A DNA stretch of 64,000 nt from Candidatus Woesebacteria bacterium (GTDB taxonomy: Bacteria; Patescibacteriota; Microgenomatia; UBA8517): assembly GCA_016432365.1 (NCBI GenBank), contig CP066686.1, forward strand, positions 273,771 to 337,770. The letters run 5' to 3'. This document shows, in pieces, positions 4,957 through 60,115 of this stretch. Made by a program: the position numbers and the translations under genes. How positions within the stretch are numbered: the stretch's first letter is position 1; each line of letters begins with the position of its first letter. Below the pieces are notes generated by a model. That model made no database searches and was not told where the DNA came from. It saw only the letters and a program-made list of their open reading frames with translations.

Positions 4957-7083
4957 TTGGCGATGATAAAAAAGCACAAAAGAAGAATAGATAAACGCGG
5001 TTTCAAATTAAAGATTAAGAGGGACACCTCTTTTTCTATCGCCAAAATTTTCTTTTTTGCACTGGCCGCATTAGTTCTTCTTTCTTTTTCTCGGCAGGGG
5101 GCGATACTACTCAAGTTTAACGATCTTCTTGTAGCTTATTTTTCCTGGTCATCATTTTTTTTACCATTTCTCTTTTTGGCTTTTGCATTTTTGATGTCTA
5201 GGGCCAAGTTTCCTATGGCTCAACCGAATGTTATTGTTGGTGGAATCCTTTTCTTTATTTCCATTGTGACTTTGACCAGAGCTGGGATTTTGGGAAATTC
5301 TGCATGGGATGGAATGAGCGCCTTAATTACAGGAATAGGTGCGGCGATTGTATTAATTGGGACCAGTTTTGTCGGTTTGATAGTCCTTTTTAATACTTCA
5401 ATTGACCAGGTTTTTAAATACGTCGCCGGACTACTTGTGCAGGTCGGGGGTTTTATCAAAAGCCCGGCTCCTATTAAAATTGGTGGCATACAGATGAGTA
5501 AAGGGCCAATGAAAGTTTCCGGTGGGGGTAACTTCAAACAACAGGTAAATATAAATCAAGCAAAACTCCCGATATCGGTAGCTGATAATAAACCCAAAGA
5601 GCCATTGGAGCAGAAACTTGTAAGCAATATTCCCGGCGAAGAAAAAATATGGAAATATCCAAGCTTTGATCTATTGAGTGATGCTGGGATAGGAAAGGCA
5701 GACAGAGGAGATATAAAAGGCAACGCGGCAGTCATCGAAAAAACACTTGAATCTTTTGGGATTACCGCAAGGGTGGTTGAGGTGAATCTTGGTCCGGCGG
5801 TGACTCAGTATGCAATTGAGGTTGCACTCGGTACAAAACTCTCCAAGATTACATCTTTGGAAAGGGATTTGGCTTTGGCTTTGGCAGCCCCAACCGGTAC
5901 AATTAGAATTGAAGCCCCGATCCCAGGAAGATCTTTGGTTGGTATCGAACTGCCAAATAGAGCAGCCGAATTCGTAACACTTAAGAGAATGATGGAGTCG
6001 GACGAGATGCTGGCGGCAAGATCAAAATTGGCGGTATCTTTAGGGTTTGATGTTTCAGGTAAACCCGTTGTCGCCGATATCGCCAGAATGCCCCATGTAC
6101 TTATCGCAGGACAAACCGGAAGCGGTAAATCGGTTTGTATTAACGCCTTTCTTGCATCTATCCTTTTTAGGGCAGCTCCAACCGAAGTAAAACTAATTTT
6201 AGTCGATCCCAAACGAGTTGAGCTAACGGGTTATAACGGTATTCCGCATCTACTTTCTCCCGTTATTGTAGAACCGGAAAAGGTAATATCTGCTCTCAGG
6301 TGGGTTATGGCCGAAATGGATAGAAGATATAAACTTTTTGCAGAAGCCGGGGCTAGGAATATTGACGGTTACAACGAAATGAGCGGGTTTCAAGCCCTGC
6401 CCTTTATTGTTCTTTTTATCGATGAACTTGCTGATATTATGCTTTTCTCTCCTGTTGAAGTCGAAGATGCAATTACTAGGATTGCGCAAATGTCACGAGC
6501 TACAGGAATTCATATGGTTTTGGCCACTCAAAGGCCATCGGTAGATGTCATTACGGGTTTAATTAAAGCTAACGTTCCTTCCCGTATCGCTTTTGCCGTC
6601 GCCTCTCAGGTCGATTCTCGCGTTATTCTTGACACACAAGGAGCAGAGAAACTGCTGGGTAAAGGAGATATGTTATATCTTCCACCCGAACAGGCAAAAC
6701 CACTTAGAATTCAAGGCGCGTTTGTCAACGATAAAGAAATTGAGGCGTTGGTGGCTTTCGTTAAAAACCAGGGAATTCCAACTCAATATACTGACGAAGT
6801 GACAACTATGAGCAAGGCCGGATCAGTTTCGGTTCCGGGGGTCGAAGGTGATACAGACAATTTGTTTAAGGAAGCGGTTAAGGTTGTTTGTCAGTACGAT
6901 AGAGCTTCGGCATCACTTTTGCAAAGAAGGCTGTCAATTGGTTATGCGAGAGCTGCCAGAATTGTAGATCAACTTGAGGCGGCGGGGGTTATCTCTACTT
7001 CAGATGGAAGTAGCAAGCCCAGGGAAGTGCTGGTCCAAAATGCAGATGAGTTTCTTGCCTCGTTTGGGGGTGGCGGTCAATGA
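4957..7083 (+). CDS. ftsK: DNA translocase FtsK/SpoIIIE
   Basis: N-terminal TM segments, Walker A GQTGSGKS, ATQRPS motif and a C-terminal gamma-like domain. Confidence 0.9.
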   Translation: MAMIKKHKRRIDKRGFKLKIKRDTSFSIAKIFFFALAALVLLSFSRQGAILLKFNDLLVAYFSWSSFFLPFLFLAFAFLMSRAKFPMAQPNVIVGGILFFISIVTLTRAGILGNSAWDGMSALITGIGAAIVLIGTSFVGLIVLFNTSIDQVFKYVAGLLVQVGGFIKSPAPIKIGGIQMSKGPMKVSGGGNFKQQVNINQAKLPISVADNKPKEPLEQKLVSNIPGEEKIWKYPSFDLLSDAGIGKADRGDIKGNAAVIEKTLESFGITARVVEVNLGPAVTQYAIEVALGTKLSKITSLERDLALALAAPTGTIRIEAPIPGRSLVGIELPNRAAEFVTLKRMMESDEMLAARSKLAVSLGFDVSGKPVVADIARMPHVLIAGQTGSGKSVCINAFLASILFRAAPTEVKLILVDPKRVELTGYNGIPHLLSPVIVEPEKVISALRWVMAEMDRRYKLFAEAGARNIDGYNEMSGFQALPFIVLFIDELADIMLFSPVEVEDAITRIAQMSRATGIHMVLATQRPSVDVITGLIKANVPSRIAFAVASQVDSRVILDTQGAEKLLGKGDMLYLPPEQAKPLRIQGAFVNDKEIEALVAFVKNQGIPTQYTDEVTTMSKAGSVSVPGVEGDTDNLFKEAVKVVCQYDRASASLLQRRLSIGYARAARIVDQLEAAGVISTSDGSSKPREVLVQNADEFLASFGGGGQ

Positions 7084-7706
7084 ATACGATTGGTCAAATC
7101 ATAAAAAATGCCCGTGTCGTAAAAGAATATTCTTTGAGCCGCCTCGAGGAAATTACAAAAATTAAAAAAGGCTTCATTTCTTCAATTGAAGAGGAAAATT
7201 GGGAGGAACTTCCCCCTTTCCCGACAGTGTTGGGATTCGTGAAGAGTATTGCCGGAGCACTTGAAGTGGACGAAAGAACTGCGGTGGCAACTTTAAAGAG
7301 GGACTATCCGCCAAAAAAATTGAGGATCAATCCTAAACCGGATGTTTCTCGGAAGTTTGTCTGGAGTCCAAAGTTGACTTTTATTATAGGTGTTGGACTT
7401 GTCTTTACAGTAATATTTGGATATTTGGCATTTCAATATACCAGATTTATTTCACCTCCGGCACTAAGTGTAGATAGTCCTGTTGAAGATCAAATTGTGT
7501 CAGGAAATAACGTGTTAGTTTTTGGTAATACGGATGTAGATGTAAAAATAACTGTCAATAATCAGCCGGTATTGGTTGACAATGATGGAAAATTCTCTGT
7601 AAGTATGGAAGTTGTGCCCGATACAAAAGAGATTGTAATTCAAGCAGTTTCAAGATCTGGTAAAATGAATGAAGTAAGGCGAAAGATACTAGTTACTAGT
7701 AACTAG
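7080..7706 (+). CDS. RodZ-like HTH membrane protein
   Basis: N-terminal HTH (XRE-like) segment, single TM and a C-terminal beta-rich domain. Overlaps the ftsK stop codon. Confidence 0.6.
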   Translation: MNTIGQIIKNARVVKEYSLSRLEEITKIKKGFISSIEEENWEELPPFPTVLGFVKSIAGALEVDERTAVATLKRDYPPKKLRINPKPDVSRKFVWSPKLTFIIGVGLVFTVIFGYLAFQYTRFISPPALSVDSPVEDQIVSGNNVLVFGNTDVDVKITVNNQPVLVDNDGKFSVSMEVVPDTKEIVIQAVSRSGKMNEVRRKILVTSN

Positions 7707-10123: not shown

Positions 10124-12283
10124 ATGAATTTAAAAGATTTTTTGAACGTACGCGACAAGCCACCCGAACTTTTTTGGTCGGTTGTACTCGAACCGGGATG
10201 GGTGCAAGCGGGTATTTGGTATGTGGAAGCCGGAAGTGCAAATATGGTCAACATTGGTCCCGGAGCTGCTTGGGAAGTTGACGACGAACTGGTTGGTGCG
10301 GCTGATGCAGCATTATCTTCTACAGTACAAAAACTCCCCGAAAATTATCCGGAACCGACAAAAACCGTTTTTGGAGTTCCTTCAGCTTGGGTGAAAAGTG
10401 GAGAGATAGTCGAAGAACATTTGGCAAAAATTAAAAAGATTTGCGCAGATTTATCTTTGAACCCGGCGGGATTCGTTGTTATAAACGAAGCAATTGCCCA
10501 TTTCTACAAATCTGAGGAAGGGTCTCCGGTTAACGCAATTATTGTTGGGTTGGGCAATAGTTATTTGGAATTATCTGTTTTTAAACTCGGAAATTTGGTT
10601 GGTTCTACTTCGGTAGCCAGAAGCGTTTCTTTAATAGAGGATATAACTGAAGGTCTCTCCAGGTTCGATCAGGCCGCCCCCCTACCTTCCAGATTTATAA
10701 TTTTTGACGGAAAAGGCGGGGAACTTGAGGAGGCAAAAGAAACAATTTTACAAGCTTCTTGGATAGAAGAAGATAAAATCAAATTTTTGCATGCACCAAA
10801 AGTTGAAACTTTATCTTCGGACAGAAAAATATTAGCAACCAGTCTTGCTGGAGCGAGTGAAATAGGCCAGGTGTCCCAGATAAAGTCTGAGATTGAAACA
10901 GAACAGCCTACACAGGAAGAAATTAGAGAAGAAAGCAATGTCGCCCCTCCCGAAGAAGGCCTTACTCCCGAGGCTCTGGGTTTTTCAATCGGACAAGATG
11001 TTACCGTATCGGCCCCTTCGGAAGTTGTGTCTCAACCTCCACCCGTTAAGGAGCCCCCATCTCCGGCGCCTATCTCCCACGTTGCCCCCGAAAGACGGGG
11101 AATGAGCGAGTATATTAAGAAGACAAAAAGTCTTTTTCGTAAACCTCCGATTCTTCCTGGTAGATTCGCTATGGTTTCCGGAGTATTCCTGGTGATTTTT
11201 CTCTTAGTTTTAGGTTTAGGGTGGTGGTTCTTCCCTAAAGCGCATGTAGTAATTTATGTGACACCAAAAACTTTTCAGGAGGAATCAGAAATAACACTTA
11301 ATACCGGCGGGTCAGATTCGGGGACGAATAGCGTACCGGCAGCTAAGATATCAGTCCAAGTTTCCGGAGAAAAAACAAAGGCCACATCCGGTTTTAAGTT
11401 AATTGGAGACAAGGCCAAAGGAACTGTCCAGATAGCCAACGGTAATAGTAGTCCGATTGATTTGGCGGCAGGCACTATTCTTTTGTCTTCAGGAGGGCTT
11501 AAATTTGTCACCAACAGTGAGGCCTCTGTTTCTTCACAGCTTTTACCCGGCTCCCCGGGAACGGCAATGGTAGATGTTACCGCCGGCGACATCGGATCTC
11601 AATACAATTTACCCAAAGGTGAGGTTTTTAAGGTTGGGAACTTTTCAAAATCCTTAGTTGCCGGTACTTCTACAGGGGACTTTTCTGGAGGGAGTAGTCA
11701 ACAGATTGCTGCAGTTAGTAAAGATGACCAAAACGCGCTTGAAACTCAATTAAAAGATGAACTAACCGCCAAAGGGAAGGTGGAACTTTCTACAAAAGTG
11801 ACCGACAACCAGATTTTGATAGACGCCTTTTCCGGCGTTGATACAATAACCGAGAATTATGATCATAAGGTTGGAGATGCAGCTGATAGTCTAAAATTGT
11901 CTTTGTTGTTGTCGCTTTCCACAGTTGCTGTTGATAAACAGAAACTATTGGAGTACGCCCGAAACAACCTGAAGGATAAAGTGCCATCGGGGTTTGTACT
12001 ACGCGACTCGCAGATTGACTTTAAATTTACGTTTGTTTCACAAAAAGACGATAATTATGTTTATAAAGTGGCCATAGGAGCAAATTTTTTGCCGCAAGTA
12101 AATACAGACGCGATCGCCAAACAAATATCCGGTAGAAGCATATCTGTTTCAGAAAGTTATTTAACTTCAACTCCCGGGTTTTCCCGTGCAGACATAACCC
12201 TGAATCCACGCTTCCCGGGTCCATTTGGGGTGATACCCAGAGTCCTTAAGAATATTAAGATAGAAGTGGTGGCAGACAAATAA
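10124..12283 (+). CDS. hypothetical membrane protein: possible actin-like (FtsA/PilM-like) N-domain, Pro-rich linker, TM, large extracytoplasmic domain
   Basis: 719-aa ORF. A central hydrophobic helix (VSGVFLVIFLLVLGLGWWFF) is preceded by a PPxP-rich linker. The fold assignment of the N-domain is an inference. Confidence 0.6.
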   Translation: MNLKDFLNVRDKPPELFWSVVLEPGWVQAGIWYVEAGSANMVNIGPGAAWEVDDELVGAADAALSSTVQKLPENYPEPTKTVFGVPSAWVKSGEIVEEHLAKIKKICADLSLNPAGFVVINEAIAHFYKSEEGSPVNAIIVGLGNSYLELSVFKLGNLVGSTSVARSVSLIEDITEGLSRFDQAAPLPSRFIIFDGKGGELEEAKETILQASWIEEDKIKFLHAPKVETLSSDRKILATSLAGASEIGQVSQIKSEIETEQPTQEEIREESNVAPPEEGLTPEALGFSIGQDVTVSAPSEVVSQPPPVKEPPSPAPISHVAPERRGMSEYIKKTKSLFRKPPILPGRFAMVSGVFLVIFLLVLGLGWWFFPKAHVVIYVTPKTFQEESEITLNTGGSDSGTNSVPAAKISVQVSGEKTKATSGFKLIGDKAKGTVQIANGNSSPIDLAAGTILLSSGGLKFVTNSEASVSSQLLPGSPGTAMVDVTAGDIGSQYNLPKGEVFKVGNFSKSLVAGTSTGDFSGGSSQQIAAVSKDDQNALETQLKDELTAKGKVELSTKVTDNQILIDAFSGVDTITENYDHKVGDAADSLKLSLLLSLSTVAVDKQKLLEYARNNLKDKVPSGFVLRDSQIDFKFTFVSQKDDNYVYKVAIGANFLPQVNTDAIAKQISGRSISVSESYLTSTPGFSRADITLNPRFPGPFGVIPRVLKNIKIEVVADK

Positions 12284-13514: not shown

Positions 13515-13579
13515 AAAACTTGACCCACCTTCGCCAAGACTTCGTGGGGTCTGTATATTGCTTGTAGAGTCTATGGAAT

Positions 13580-13608
13580 TTGACTTTTAGCCTCAAATAT
13601 GCTACACT
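13580..13608 (+). promoter_or_regulatory. sigma70-like promoter TTGACT-17-TACACT
   Basis: Seen directly. Would give a roughly 350-nt leader before the cold-shock-domain gene. Confidence 0.4.
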
Positions 13609-13965
13609 ATCGGATACTTGAATTCCATATTTTGCTTGGGATTTAGGTTCAATTAGCTCATTAATCCCGTACAGAATTTACTTTGCGCCACGAACTACGT
13701 TTGTGCTCGCAAAGGGCTTTTTTACGGGATCTGCAGTGCTAGTCGCACTTTGACAAAAGAGAGATAAAGAACTCCTTTTAGCCTTGTTCCAGCAATAATT
13801 TCGCATTCGCCTTTTCAGCACTGTTCGTACACGGCTCTTGCCAAATTCTGACGGGACTTCGCTTCTGCATGCTTGAAGGCAGCACTCCGCGCATCTGTTA
13901 CAACTCGTGCTCGGAACGCTGCTCATTCAAGCGGCCTACCAATGGGTAGAAAAGGAGTGAGTGAT

Positions 13966-14583
13966 ATGGAAACCGGAACGGTAAAATGGTTCGACGCCCG
14001 GGAAGGTAAAAAGTTTGGCTTCGTGACGGCTGAGGATGGGAAAGAAATTTTCTTCCATTACAATGACGGAAGACCCATTCAGGTCAATGTCACAAAACGC
14101 CGAGTCGAGTTTTCCGACCAGCCTACGTTTCAGACCAAAGACGGAGTTCGCCGTCTTCGCGACCCCAAGCCCGGAGACAAAATCGTTTTTGTCAGGACGC
14201 AGGGTTACAAGGGTGATAAGGCATCGCCTTGGTCTTTCAAGTCGATCCACGACAAAGCAATCGACCAAATTGCCAAGTTGCCGGAACCGACTGTGTACCG
14301 AGCCCTCGAGACGATGAATAATGTCGGCGACGTGGCCGGTGAACCCAAGGTGTTGTGGGAAGGGTCCGATTTGGAAGCGCTCCTTGCCAAGTACCCAGTA
14401 CCTTCTGGTAGGCAGTCTCCCGGTTCCGATCCACTGATTCCGTATTATTCGGATTCAGACAATATCTTTGAGATTCGGCACTGGTTCGAGAAGAAGGTTG
14501 GAGAAATCTGGGAGCAATGCCCCGATCCACGCTTGCTGTCGGGAGCAAACCGACAGTTCGAACGTATCACCAACCGTTGGTAA
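13966..14583 (+). CDS. cold-shock domain (CspA-like) protein fused to an uncharacterised 140-aa C-terminal domain
   Basis: METGTVKWFD...KGFGFV RNP motifs of the CSD. Strong SD AAAAGGAGTGA 6 nt before the ATG. Locally GC-rich. Confidence 0.75.
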   Translation: METGTVKWFDAREGKKFGFVTAEDGKEIFFHYNDGRPIQVNVTKRRVEFSDQPTFQTKDGVRRLRDPKPGDKIVFVRTQGYKGDKASPWSFKSIHDKAIDQIAKLPEPTVYRALETMNNVGDVAGEPKVLWEGSDLEALLAKYPVPSGRQSPGSDPLIPYYSDSDNIFEIRHWFEKKVGEIWEQCPDPRLLSGANRQFERITNRW

Positions 14584-48264: not shown

Positions 48265-48335
48265 CGGGGTGTAGTTTACCGGTAGAATGGGCGCATGGGG
48301 TGCGTCCGGACTGAGTTCAATTCTCAGCACCCCGA
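48265..48335 (+). tRNA. tRNA-Pro (anticodon GGG), 71 nt, CCA not encoded
   Basis: Hand-folded cloverleaf. 7-bp acceptor stem with C1:G72, U8, D-loop ACCGGUA, anticodon stem GGCGC/GCGUC with loop AUGGGGU (U33, G37), 4-nt variable loop, T-arm CUGAG-UUCAAUU-CUCAG, discriminator A. Confidence 0.6.
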
Positions 48336-54184: not shown

Positions 54185-54215
54185 ATTTAAAACGACCGAC
54201 CCGGTCGTTTTTTTT
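54185..54215 (+). terminator. Rho-independent terminator (ACGACCG-ACCC-GGTCGT plus T8)
   Basis: Seen directly after rny. Confidence 0.6.
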
Positions 54216-54245
54216 GCGGCTAAAGAAAGGAAGGAGGTGATTTAG

Positions 54246-54446
54246 ATGGCAGAAAGGTTTGTGCTTAACAAAGAAGGGGAGTTGTTGGCGACCATCGAAG
54301 AAGACGAAAATTCAAAAACAACAACCGTGATGGATTGGAGGGGAAAAGAAGCATTTAAAATAGAAGAAAGAAAAGATATTCACGGAAAAACCTTTACAAA
54401 GGCGGTAGATCCCTTGAGTGGTTACGGTAACGAAAGTTACGAATAA
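54246..54446 (+). CDS. small hypothetical protein (66 aa)
   Basis: Strong SD AAGGAGGTGA 7 nt before the ATG. Confidence 0.5.
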   Translation: MAERFVLNKEGELLATIEEDENSKTTTVMDWRGKEAFKIEERKDIHGKTFTKAVDPLSGYGNESYE

Positions 54447-54542
54447 TCATTTTACTTGACCCCAGTCACAATTTCGCATTCGCCTTTTTAATTCTATTCG
54501 AATACGGCTTATGCCAAATTATAACGGGGCACGGCAATTCAC

Positions 54543-54571
54543 TTGACAATAATTGATATTTGCCGTATTCT
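54543..54571 (+). promoter_or_regulatory. promoter TTGACA-17-TATTCT for hup; -10 box 10 nt before the ATG
   Basis: Seen directly. Confidence 0.45.
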
Positions 54572-54581
54572 TGACACGAAT

Positions 54582-54857
54582 ATGACAAAAGGTGACTTGA
54601 TTGATCAAGTGGCAAGAAAAGCACATCTTACAAAAAAAGCTGCAGAAGAAGCTGTTGAGGTTTTTCTTAATGAAATCGGACGCATTTTATCTAAAGGCGA
54701 GAAAGTTGTTCTTTCCGGATTTGGAACTTTCAGAGTAATTTCGATGAAAGGTAAAACCGTTAAGATTCCAAAAACAGAAAAAATGGTTACAATTAAATCT
54801 CACAGATCTCCCCGTTTTACTCCAGGAAAGAAACTCAAACGCCAAGTGGCGAGGTAA
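54582..54857 (+). CDS. hup: HU-family DNA-binding protein
   Basis: MTKGDLIDQVA..., the GFGTF beta-arm motif and RSPRF motif. Confidence 0.85.
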   Translation: MTKGDLIDQVARKAHLTKKAAEEAVEVFLNEIGRILSKGEKVVLSGFGTFRVISMKGKTVKIPKTEKMVTIKSHRSPRFTPGKKLKRQVAR

Positions 54858-59562: not shown

Positions 59563-59781
59563 AAAAAATCCCGCATGTGCGGGATTTTTGTACTCTAGAG
59601 AGTAGTAAGCCATTTTCGCTACGCTCAAATGTCTTGGCTTCTCTCTAGTGCACGATACGAAAAACCCCTCCTTATGGAGGGGTAAATCGTACTCTAGAGA
59701 GTAGTAAGCAAATCTTGCTACTCGTTATCCATAAAAAATCCCACGAAAGTGGGATTTTATATACTCTAGAGAGTAGTAAGC
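59563..59781 (-). repeat. three tandem modules of (rnpB 3'-terminal 21-mer GCTTACTACTCTCTAGAGTAC plus intrinsic-terminator hairpin)
   Basis: The antisense 20-mer TACTCTAGAGAGTAGTAAGC occurs identically at 59591-59610, 59690-59709 and 59762-59781. Each copy is flanked by a hairpin of different sequence that conserves the stem (ATCCCGCA/TGCGGGAT; CCCCTCC/GGAGGGG; ATCCCAC/GTGGGAT) next to a T-run. Confidence 0.7.
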
Positions 59782-60115
59782 CAGGTTCTGTTAGGCCCTG
59801 AACAAATTTCAGGGTTTGACGATCATCCATCTAACGCCCTCGAACTTCGGAACGTGGCTCGATTACTCGAGCCGTTGGTAAAGCTCCTGTAACGTTCCTT
59901 TCGGAGGTTGCAGCGGGGAGGATTGCCTCTTTTCACTCGTTTTTCCCTACCTTTAGGGTAAGAAAATCGACATAGTCTCTGTGGCTCTAACTGGCTACAT
60001 TCCTTGCGGAACATATCCCAGGCTTACGCCTGGCACCCTGCTTTTCTGCTGCCTGGACTTTCCTCCCCTCATAGCCTTGCGGCGACGTGGGGCGATCATC
60101 CTTTCTCTAGAGTGA
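59762..60115 (-). ncRNA. rnpB: RNase P RNA (bacterial type A)
   Basis: The reverse complement carries GAGGGGAGGAAAGUCCAGGC (P4 5' strand, CR-I) and AGCAGGGUGCCAGGCGUAAGCCUGGG (the P10-P12 region). It also has AGGUAGGG.AAAA.GAGUGAAAAG (CR-II-like) and a P18 hairpin followed by ACAGAACCUGGCUUAC (CR-V, P4 3' strand). P1 pairs ACUCUAGAGA with UCUCUAGAGU. Confidence 0.8.

Follow-up and report, generated by a model that had tools for sequence, protein, structure and literature searches.

An uncatalogued, structurally constrained hairpin family in Patescibacteria, with two copies upstream of csd and hup in a Candidatus Woesebacteria genome

We analyzed a 64,000-nucleotide stretch of a Candidatus Woesebacteria genome (contig CP066686.1 of assembly GCA_016432365.1, forward-strand positions 273,771 to 337,770), which is called the window below and numbered from its first letter. 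It contains two copies of a short intergenic repeat, one upstream of a gene for a CSD-family (cold-shock domain) protein, here csd, and the other upstream of the gene for HU, hup. According to the original prediction, this pairing with genes for abundant nucleic-acid-binding proteins pointed to an UP element, an activator site, or a shared regulatory RNA motif. We find that the repeat belongs to an uncatalogued, structurally constrained hairpin family that is widespread but sporadic in Patescibacteria, bacteria whose tiny genomes contain hardly any non-coding DNA and in which few regulatory RNAs are known. What was computed directly is the repeat and its fold, how the pairs covary, the difference between strands in the core, the family with its two subtypes, and the presence or absence of the element at orthologous sites.

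Two copies of one repeat in the window

The repeat is real. The stretches 13797-13858 and 54470-54531 (the second had been placed one base off, at 54469-54530) are identical at 49 of 62 bases in a gap-free comparison, that is, 79% where ~75% had been noted. With up to three mismatches tolerated, the 64 kb contain exactly two occurrences of the 19-mer AATTTCGCATTCGCCTTTT (0.15 expected from shuffles), and the 3' gapped block ACGGCTNNTGCCAAATTNTNACGGG likewise occurs twice (0.00 expected). No third copy was detected in the 64 kb by nhmmer or by a covariance model run with filters off, and no tandem repeats were found. Both stretches are non-coding, as had been claimed: a minus-strand open reading frame (ORF) at 13678-13926 overlaps copy 1 and was rejected since it has no counterpart at copy 2, and a tRNA-like or tmRNA identity was discarded because ARAGORN finds only a tRNA-Pro at 48265. 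The short gap to a -35-type hexamer, given as 12-15 nt, is likewise borne out, with 12 nt from copy 2 to TTGACA (54543) and 14 nt from copy 1 to TTGAAG (13873). The promoter scan pairs only the TTGACA upstream of HU with a -10 and calls no promoter at 13873. The ATG of csd (13966) lies 108 nt past copy 1, and that of hup is at 54582.

The features around the two copies are listed below. Stems of the hairpin are numbered from P1 (base) to P5 (tip), type B is one of the two subtypes described further on, MFE stands for minimum free energy, and L-numbers denote loci from other genomes or metagenomes that were compared with the window.

13519-13538, minus strand: terminator-like site, the first downstream of copy 1 in the sense of the hairpin
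13786-13857, minus strand: copy 1, full hairpin P1-P5, type B (MFE fold of 13775-13875, minus strand; covariance model 72.3 bits, E 4e-18)
13795-13848, minus strand: conserved core P2-P5 of copy 1
13966-14583, plus strand: CSD-family gene downstream of copy 1, 205 aa (Pfam CSD, E 2.4e-9, residues 3-34 only)
54189-54211, no strand assigned: hairpin with T-runs on both sides, bidirectional terminator-like; on the minus strand, the first such site past copy 2
54246-54446, plus strand: 66-aa ORF, upstream neighbor of copy 2; an insertion relative to the closest relative, where rny directly precedes the element
54456-54461, plus strand: -35-like hexamer TTGACC overlapping the P1 base of copy 2 (flank comparison; no -10 at 16-18 nt, not called a promoter)
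54459-54530, minus strand: copy 2, full hairpin P1-P5, type B (MFE fold; covariance model 78.6 bits)
54468-54521, minus strand: conserved core P2-P5 of copy 2
54543-54571, plus strand: HU promoter TTGACA-17-TATTCT, outside the element, 12 nt past copy 2; conserved in L044, L048, and L054
54582-54857, plus strand: HU gene downstream of copy 2, 91 aa (Pfam Bac_DNA_binding, E 4.8e-26)

As to the downstream genes, the cold-shock match covers a small part of the CSD-family protein, the rest of which is a long extension. We found 26 homologues, and the protein is 100% identical to a Candidatus Woesebacteria protein. The csd region is locally G+C-rich (52% vs. ~41%). The HU gene appears leaderless or nearly so, since its -10 (TATTCT) ends at 54571, only just before the ATG, and there is no Shine-Dalgarno sequence; the 104-aa versions of HU in databases (e.g., P0027) start at a TTG lying inside the -35 hexamer. 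Upstream of copy 2, the acidic 66-aa ORF with its strong Shine-Dalgarno sequence AAGGAGGTG and the bidirectional terminator-like hairpin preceding it (54189-54446, plus strand) make up a ~330 nt insertion between rny and the element when compared with L044. This ORF has no Pfam match. A type I toxin-antitoxin system involving it was considered and rejected, the protein being hydrophilic and acidic and the ORF being absent in L044.

Fold, strand, and covariation of the hairpin family

When both strands were folded, each window copy gave, on the minus strand, one long irregular hairpin that consists, from base to tip, of P1, P2, a G.G mismatch, P3, two tandem G.A-type pairs, P4, an internal loop, and P5. 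The basal stem P1 is variable (GCCCC/GGGGU in copy 2), P2 is AAUUU/AAAUU in the window copies, P3 is GCA[U]/[A]UGC, and P4 is GCC/GGC. The internal loop between P4 and P5 is asymmetric, with GU facing an A-rich run that has a terminal AA. The apical stem P5 has 4 bp and varies; in most members its cap is a 5-nt loop of the GNRNA type (GAAYA in both window copies). Differences between the window copies fall mostly in P5, where pairing is kept (GUAC/GUGC with one U.G in copy 1, AUUC/GAAU in copy 2). The invariant middle, comprising the tandem G.A pairs, the G.G mismatch, and the A-rich bulge, is purine-rich on the minus strand. Folded with its flanks, copy 2 has an MFE of -34.6 kcal/mol (z = -6.3), a stability reached by 0 of 200 shuffles, and copy 1 has -24.6 kcal/mol (z = -1.45).

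The further copies sought in the original prediction exist outside the window. A degenerate pattern scan of one genome per species identified four metagenome-assembled genomes with true instances, a fifth match being due to chance; one is labeled Paceibacterota (two copies), one Microgenomates, and two carry the unverified label "uncultured Gammaproteobacteria". Ten of the 27 matches in a metagenome scan were true instances. Four matches in IMG/VR viral contigs were all chance matches in G+C-rich DNA, with no true instance, and the same kind of chance match in G+C-rich DNA led us to reject L005-L007, L009, L010, L012, L014, L017-L019, L022, L023, L025, L026, and L032. A relaxed descriptor applied to 728 kb of fetched DNA revealed no diverged copies beyond those already known. 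The family thus numbers 17 instances of ~72-90 nt, the two in the window and 15 in other Patescibacteria genomes and metagenomes. A covariance model of the element, also proposed at the outset, was built and recovers both window copies, on the minus strand.

The P1-P5 fold is common to all 17 instances, and all 17 are more stable on this strand. In their alignment, 99.6% of 272 core pair cells are paired, and six pairs have changed on both sides, namely all four of P5 and two of P2. None of 500 shuffles reached the observed percentage paired, number of both-side-changed cells, further pair types, or covariation score, and the count of pairs changed on both sides was reached by one of the 500; in slid registers, pairing was only 28-41%. 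P1 differs by subfamily yet always pairs (CCGCC/GGAGG, CCCUCC/GGAGGG, GCCCG/CGGGU, and GACCCC/GGGGUC). In addition, ~30 bases are invariant across classes of bacteria, mismatches and bulges included. The copy at the orthologous place upstream of HU in L044 shows both-side changes at three consecutive P3 pairs (U-A to C-G, A-U to U-A, and C-G to U-A) with the architecture kept. Judging from the sequence of this compensated variant, the structure is under selection in type B, too.

Several comparisons assign the structure to one strand. For copy 2, the energies are -33.1 kcal/mol on the minus strand and -18.8 kcal/mol on the other; the covariance model, with filters off, gives the minus strand 78.6 and 72.3 bits and the plus strand 14.9 bits; and RNAalifold, which predicted the same structure independently, gives -18.9 kcal/mol on the structured strand vs. 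-12.1 kcal/mol on the strand read originally. The three non-Watson-Crick pairs of the core helices are all G.U on the structured strand and A.C or C.A on the opposite one, and the conserved unpaired or mismatched bases are purines on the structured strand. By GC skew, the plus strand is the leading strand here and the structured strand corresponds to lagging-strand sequence, an assignment that alone does not separate the readings discussed below.

A search of Rfam 15 on both strands, with E values up to 10, returned only noise over the element (mir-651 at 17.4 bits and lsy-6 at 14.6 bits), and no gathering-level Rfam match covers it in the window or in 15 other loci. Nothing relevant was found in the literature on RNA motifs of the Candidate Phyla Radiation (CPR) or on leaderless promoters.

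Genomic contexts, orthologous sites, and competing readings

The instances fall into two subtypes that differ in P2 and in their position relative to genes. In type A, P2 is AUUUU/AAAAU, and the structured strand runs in the same direction as the next gene in 9 of 11 cases, as read from ORF maps. Two near-identical copies, which differ by one base, are found in L001, with the core ~30 nt before the start codons of thrS and pheS. Other type A copies lie between rplT and pheS (L011), upstream of pheS (L021), upstream of a small ORF and cysS (L003), ~370 nt before a 16S rRNA gene (L008), and 3' of tRNA genes, at 63 nt (L013) and 130 nt (L002). The L029 copy is placed between an AdoCbl-II aptamer (40.7 bits, E 2e-8), which it follows at 2-3 nt, and an ORF that starts ~18 nt after its end. 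Members of the A1 subfamily carry, 5' of the hairpin, a terminator and a -10-like hexamer as well as AAATAG, a motif that they share. The position of type A is compatible with a sense-strand leader.

Two further observations concern these loci. In L029 (4599-4745 and 7189-7302), the ORF after the element has no assigned function, and a LOOT RNA is found ~2.5 kb further on the other strand. In L057 (4975-5003), L011, and L001 (760-792 and 4000-4031), pheS and thrS appear leaderless, without a Shine-Dalgarno sequence; their -10 hexamers (TAAAAT, TAATAT, or TAAACT, often with an upstream TG) end 6-7 nt before the ATG, and in L057 and L011 the -10 comes directly after the rplT terminator.

Type B, with P2 = AAUUU/AAAUU and a plus-strand flank CTTGACCCC that is degenerate in copy 1 (CTTGTTCC, about 13783-13790), comprises both window copies, L016, L020, L024, L027, and the L044 variant. 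Both neighbors, wherever the flanks are known, are antisense to the structured strand. On the gene strand, ~8-37 nt separate type B from the -35 that follows it, which belongs to a gene for HU, a CSD protein, a DUF5667 protein, or an M23 peptidase. The window copies, being antisense to the genes on either side and ending shortly before the -35, cannot belong to the csd or hup mRNAs.

Such placing could be read as a regulatory site in DNA form upstream of the promoter, either a site for an activator or nucleoid protein or a cruciform, which would tune strong promoters of genes for abundant nucleic-acid-binding and translation-related proteins. Type B is always just upstream of a sigma-70-like promoter (TTGACA-17-TATTCT for HU, TTGACA-17-TACTAT in L024, and TTGACT...TAGAAT/TAGACT in L016/L020), and a -10 follows the core end TGCGAA by exactly 17 nt in L001, L011, and L021. 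The neighbors include HU, CSD, an RRM protein (~330 nt from the L004 copy), an rRNA operon, and aminoacyl-tRNA synthetase genes, and a duplex site can act in either orientation. Nevertheless, we regard a DNA site as improbable since 1) the distance to the -35 in type B is not fixed, 2) the promoter-proximal part is G+C-rich (ACGGGGCACGGCAATTCAC), unlike an A/T-rich UP element, 3) the variable stems conserve complementarity over sequence, which a duplex DNA site need not do, 4) the same promoters work without the element in close relatives, 5) the association with CSD is not conserved, and 6) the L029 copy, between a riboswitch aptamer and its ORF, is in a transcribed position. The first three points speak against the UP element or activator site originally proposed. 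For annotation, the "shared upstream element" of csd and hup should not be taken as a promoter motif.

Three more local explanations were rejected. A promoter inside the element (TTGGCA-15 nt-TAGTAT-like) has too short a spacer, and its "-10" covaries as a stem; TTGACC at the base of type B, taken as a promoter, has no -10 at 16-18 nt; and sequestration of a Shine-Dalgarno sequence by P1 does not fit since 15-25 nt separate the GGAGG-like strand from start codons, and the rRNA-leader copy has this strand, too.

The pairing with csd and hup, on which the original prediction relied, is, as far as the compared sequences go, no conserved property. Seven loci around CSD orthologues (84-50% identity) all lack the element. 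At HU, the gene order rny-hup-ABC transporter is preserved, and the closest relative (L044, HU 97% identical) has a diverged and structurally intact copy in the same place and orientation; in relatives at 92-93% HU identity, the element is absent upstream of HU, though the hup promoter is kept. Elsewhere, the neighbors are thrS, pheS, cysS, 16S rRNA, tRNAs, a B12 riboswitch, and genes for the M23 peptidase and the DUF5667 protein.

A second reading is a mobile or self-propagating DNA palindrome in the style of REP, PATE, MITE, or single-stranded DNA transposition. A trans-acting nuclease or transposase would recognize the hairpin in its single-stranded DNA form, and the copies would be passengers in the few gaps that a compact genome permits (terminator-promoter spacers, tRNA trailers, and leaders), with incidental effects on genes. 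L011 and L057 have near-identical flanks and differ cleanly by the P1-to-P1 unit, which is inserted between the T-run of the rplT terminator and GTTGTAAAAT: L011 reads GGGGTTTTT, element, GTTGTAAAAT, and the empty site of L057 reads GGGTTTTTTGTTGTAAAAT. This presence/absence polymorphism is what a mobile palindrome would leave, and so is the sporadic occurrence at the three orthologous sites of pheS, HU, and CSD. The window and L001 each have two copies, those of the window at unrelated loci, and across the family both orientations relative to genes occur. Each subfamily has a P1 and flanks of its own that recur at non-homologous loci in Paceibacterota- and Microgenomates-labeled hosts; in the variable parts, copy 2 matches L020 and L024 at 78% but copy 1, from the same genome, at 62%; and L016 and L020 share a nearly identical block of ~135 nt with P5 swapped wholesale, between flanks that are ~50-60% identical. 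Some copies adjoin tRNA, GIY-YIG, or HNH genes.

Other observations count against this reading. No target-site duplication abuts the hairpin in type A, in type B, or in the L011/L057 pair; CTTGAC was considered as a type B duplication and rejected, its second copy being a genuine -35, 11-37 nt from the hairpin end, that does not abut the element. Conservation peaks in the middle and is lowest at the ends (P1), the opposite of terminal inverted repeats. Neither the junction duplications nor the conserved termini of REP/RAYT, PATE, or MITE elements are found. Copy number is low in the genome fragments that were compared, with two in 64 kb and, apart from the diverged L044-L047 copy, none in ~430 kb of partly redundant Woesebacteria loci fetched via CSD, HU, and PheS. 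No transposase is linked; the sole Y1_Tnp gene seen (L040) has no copy nearby; IMG/VR viral contigs gave no match; and orientation correlates with subtype, which is unexpected for a single mechanism of single-stranded DNA transposition. On balance, we consider a mobile palindrome a serious alternative that is still rather doubtful. The Y1_Tnp gene just mentioned, of IS200/IS605 type, is 1 kb from a CSD orthologue in one relative (L040 11637-12332 / L041 6560-7255), where the hairpin element is absent.

A third reading, an RNA hairpin for 3'-end formation, processing, or insulation that has no specific partner and would punctuate transcripts in either orientation like a terminator or an RNase III site, seems to us very improbable. 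The copies are always intergenic and often beside canonical terminators, a U-run directly follows P1 in L030 and L008, the L044 copy is the only hairpin between rny and hup and has a U-rich stretch after it on the plus strand, and a ~25-30 bp helix with internal loops is found at rRNA-leader, tRNA-trailer, and intercistronic sites, at which processing often takes place. However, the window copies have no U-run after them on either strand, and a scan for intrinsic terminators calls neither; L030 and L008 are the only instances with such a run after P1, and many copies already have canonical terminators beside them. A generic hairpin would not keep ~30 invariant bases, including mismatches and bulges, across bacterial classes.

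Four other features of these loci were recorded. Between ruvX and copy 1, a sigma-70-like promoter with an upstream TG (TTGACT-17-TACACT, 13580-13608, plus strand) precedes a strongly structured stretch of ~115 nt that ends with a hairpin and U6 (-37.5 kcal/mol, z = -5.2); this candidate small RNA (13580-13728) matches no Rfam family, and the related contig L027 does not conserve it. In L048-L051 (~6020-7400), an RVT_1 and bAvd pair resembling a diversity-generating retroelement is found between recX and rny, a few kb from hup, with no counterpart at the homologous place in the window. The RNase P RNA of the window (bacterial class A; 59761-60111, minus strand) scores 105.9 bits against a gathering score of 100, which suggests that it is reduced or divergent. 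Finally, a 719-aa protein encoded between alaS and a sortase gene (10124-12283, plus strand) has a weak Baseplate_J-like match (E 1e-5).

Interpretation and comparison with known systems

Tentatively, we favor reading the element as a module of structured RNA, or at the least a single-strand hairpin, that has a conserved partner and has spread by copying among intergenic sites. In its favor, the invariant purine-rich loops and the G.U pairs all fall on a single strand, and type A occupies sense-strand slots just upstream of genes, including the one between an aptamer and its ORF. The terminator, -10-like hexamer, and AAATAG motif that precede the hairpin in the A1 subfamily point the same way. 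Covarying stems around conserved loops, which characterize leaders and riboswitches, are present as well.

In such a module, the invariant purine-rich middle would be the docking site of the conserved partner, most likely a protein, and the module would be copied from one intergenic site to another. Type A would occupy a sense-strand leader position before genes of the translation apparatus and, once, after a B12 riboswitch aptamer. If expressed, the window copies would be promoter-upstream antisense transcripts running toward the terminator-like sites at 54211-54189 and 13538-13519, and any effect on csd or hup would be indirect. That the element acts as RNA, that a protein binds its middle, and that type B copies are transcribed at all, we infer.

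A number of observations weigh against this interpretation. Tested by themselves, the arms of P1 and outer P2 favor neither strand, so the strand call rests on the core. Part of the invariance of P3 and P4 comes from the search patterns, and compensatory changes in DNA palindromes can come from template switching without selection at the RNA level. No minus-strand promoter was found upstream of either window copy in our scan, and type B relatives share none. In L003, L011, and L021, the element abuts the T-run of the upstream terminator, and in L001, L003, L011, and L021 a -10 hexamer found 17 nt after the core is 6-7 nt before the ATG; by this layout, the downstream genes may be leaderless and the element upstream of the promoter and untranscribed. 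The element is absent from five of eight pheS upstream regions (the rplT-pheS spacer, in other Woesebacteria lineages), and it is dispensable, coming and going, because it is missing at CSD, at distant HU, and at these five pheS sites. Lastly, subfamilies have identical sequence in otherwise free stems at non-homologous loci in hosts of different classes, which favors copying over vertical descent.

The original prediction was therefore right in part. There is a real, non-coding repeat with relatives elsewhere, and both copies are just upstream of a promoter region; the strand, the UP-element or activator role, and the gene pairing did not hold up. "Shared regulatory RNA motif" came closest of its three options, but the structure is on the minus strand, antisense to csd and hup. 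Since that strand is, moreover, upstream of their promoters, the window copies do not have the arrangement of a cis-regulatory leader.

As for novelty, it is conceivable, if somewhat doubtful, that the family is a new CPR-specific structured RNA. Its G.A/G.G/A-rich middle would bind a factor or small molecule and couple the expression of thrS, pheST, cysS, and rRNA to it, with the antisense type B as a decoy or promoter-upstream form; alternatively, the hairpin could belong to an undescribed single-strand mobilization system. Whether an unrecognized regulatory RNA or an unrecognized small mobile hairpin, the element would add to genome control or genome reshuffling in Patescibacteria.

We compared the element with known systems, in the case of mRNA leaders by Rfam scans as well. 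A T-box leader was rejected: the thrS and pheS copies of L001 differ by one base, the element is 75-90 nt long, and there is no Rfam T-box match. The element is not specific for an amino acid because of that single-base difference. Resemblance to K-turns, hammerheads, and group II domain V (UGA...GAA around a stem; GAGCCGUAU) was also discarded since the element lacks the bulge, three-way junction, or Rfam score that these require. Other mRNA leader motifs, such as ribosomal-protein leaders, THF-II, and NMT1 xanthine, are likewise single irregular hairpins of ~55-90 nt with invariant bases in internal loops flanked by covarying stems, and the placing of type A fits them. The element differs in having no Rfam match, a gene set that is only loosely coherent, antisense copies in the window, and dispensability in close relatives.

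The RNase III hairpins of phage T7 are likewise mutually similar hairpins with internal loops between genes, where they punctuate polycistronic RNA. The element differs in that its family spans many hosts and two orientation classes, with no cleavage demonstrated. Integron attC sites share with it the imperfect palindrome, a conserved lower or middle part, extrahelical or mismatched bases, a variable tip, and a functional strand antisense to ORFs, and copy 2 follows a small inserted ORF. However, the RYYYAAC...GTTRRRY boxes are absent, the polarity of the element being GTT...(G/A)AC, there is no cassette array or nearby integrase, and type A is oppositely oriented. We thus rejected attC, the bases of copy 2 (GTTATAA...TTGTGAC) and copy 1 (GTCAGAA...TTATTGC) being of reverse polarity and no match.

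REP/BIME and ERIC elements of enterobacteria and Correia elements of Neisseria are likewise short imperfect intergenic palindromes that occur in either orientation and in several copies, vary at orthologous sites, lie near terminators and promoters, and form hairpins in transcripts. Compared with them, the element has a far lower copy number in the sequences compared, conservation that is highest in the middle of the hairpin, and no target duplication or linked RAYT or transposase that we could see. Moreover, whereas REPs are largely species-specific, the core of the element is common to hosts of different classes.

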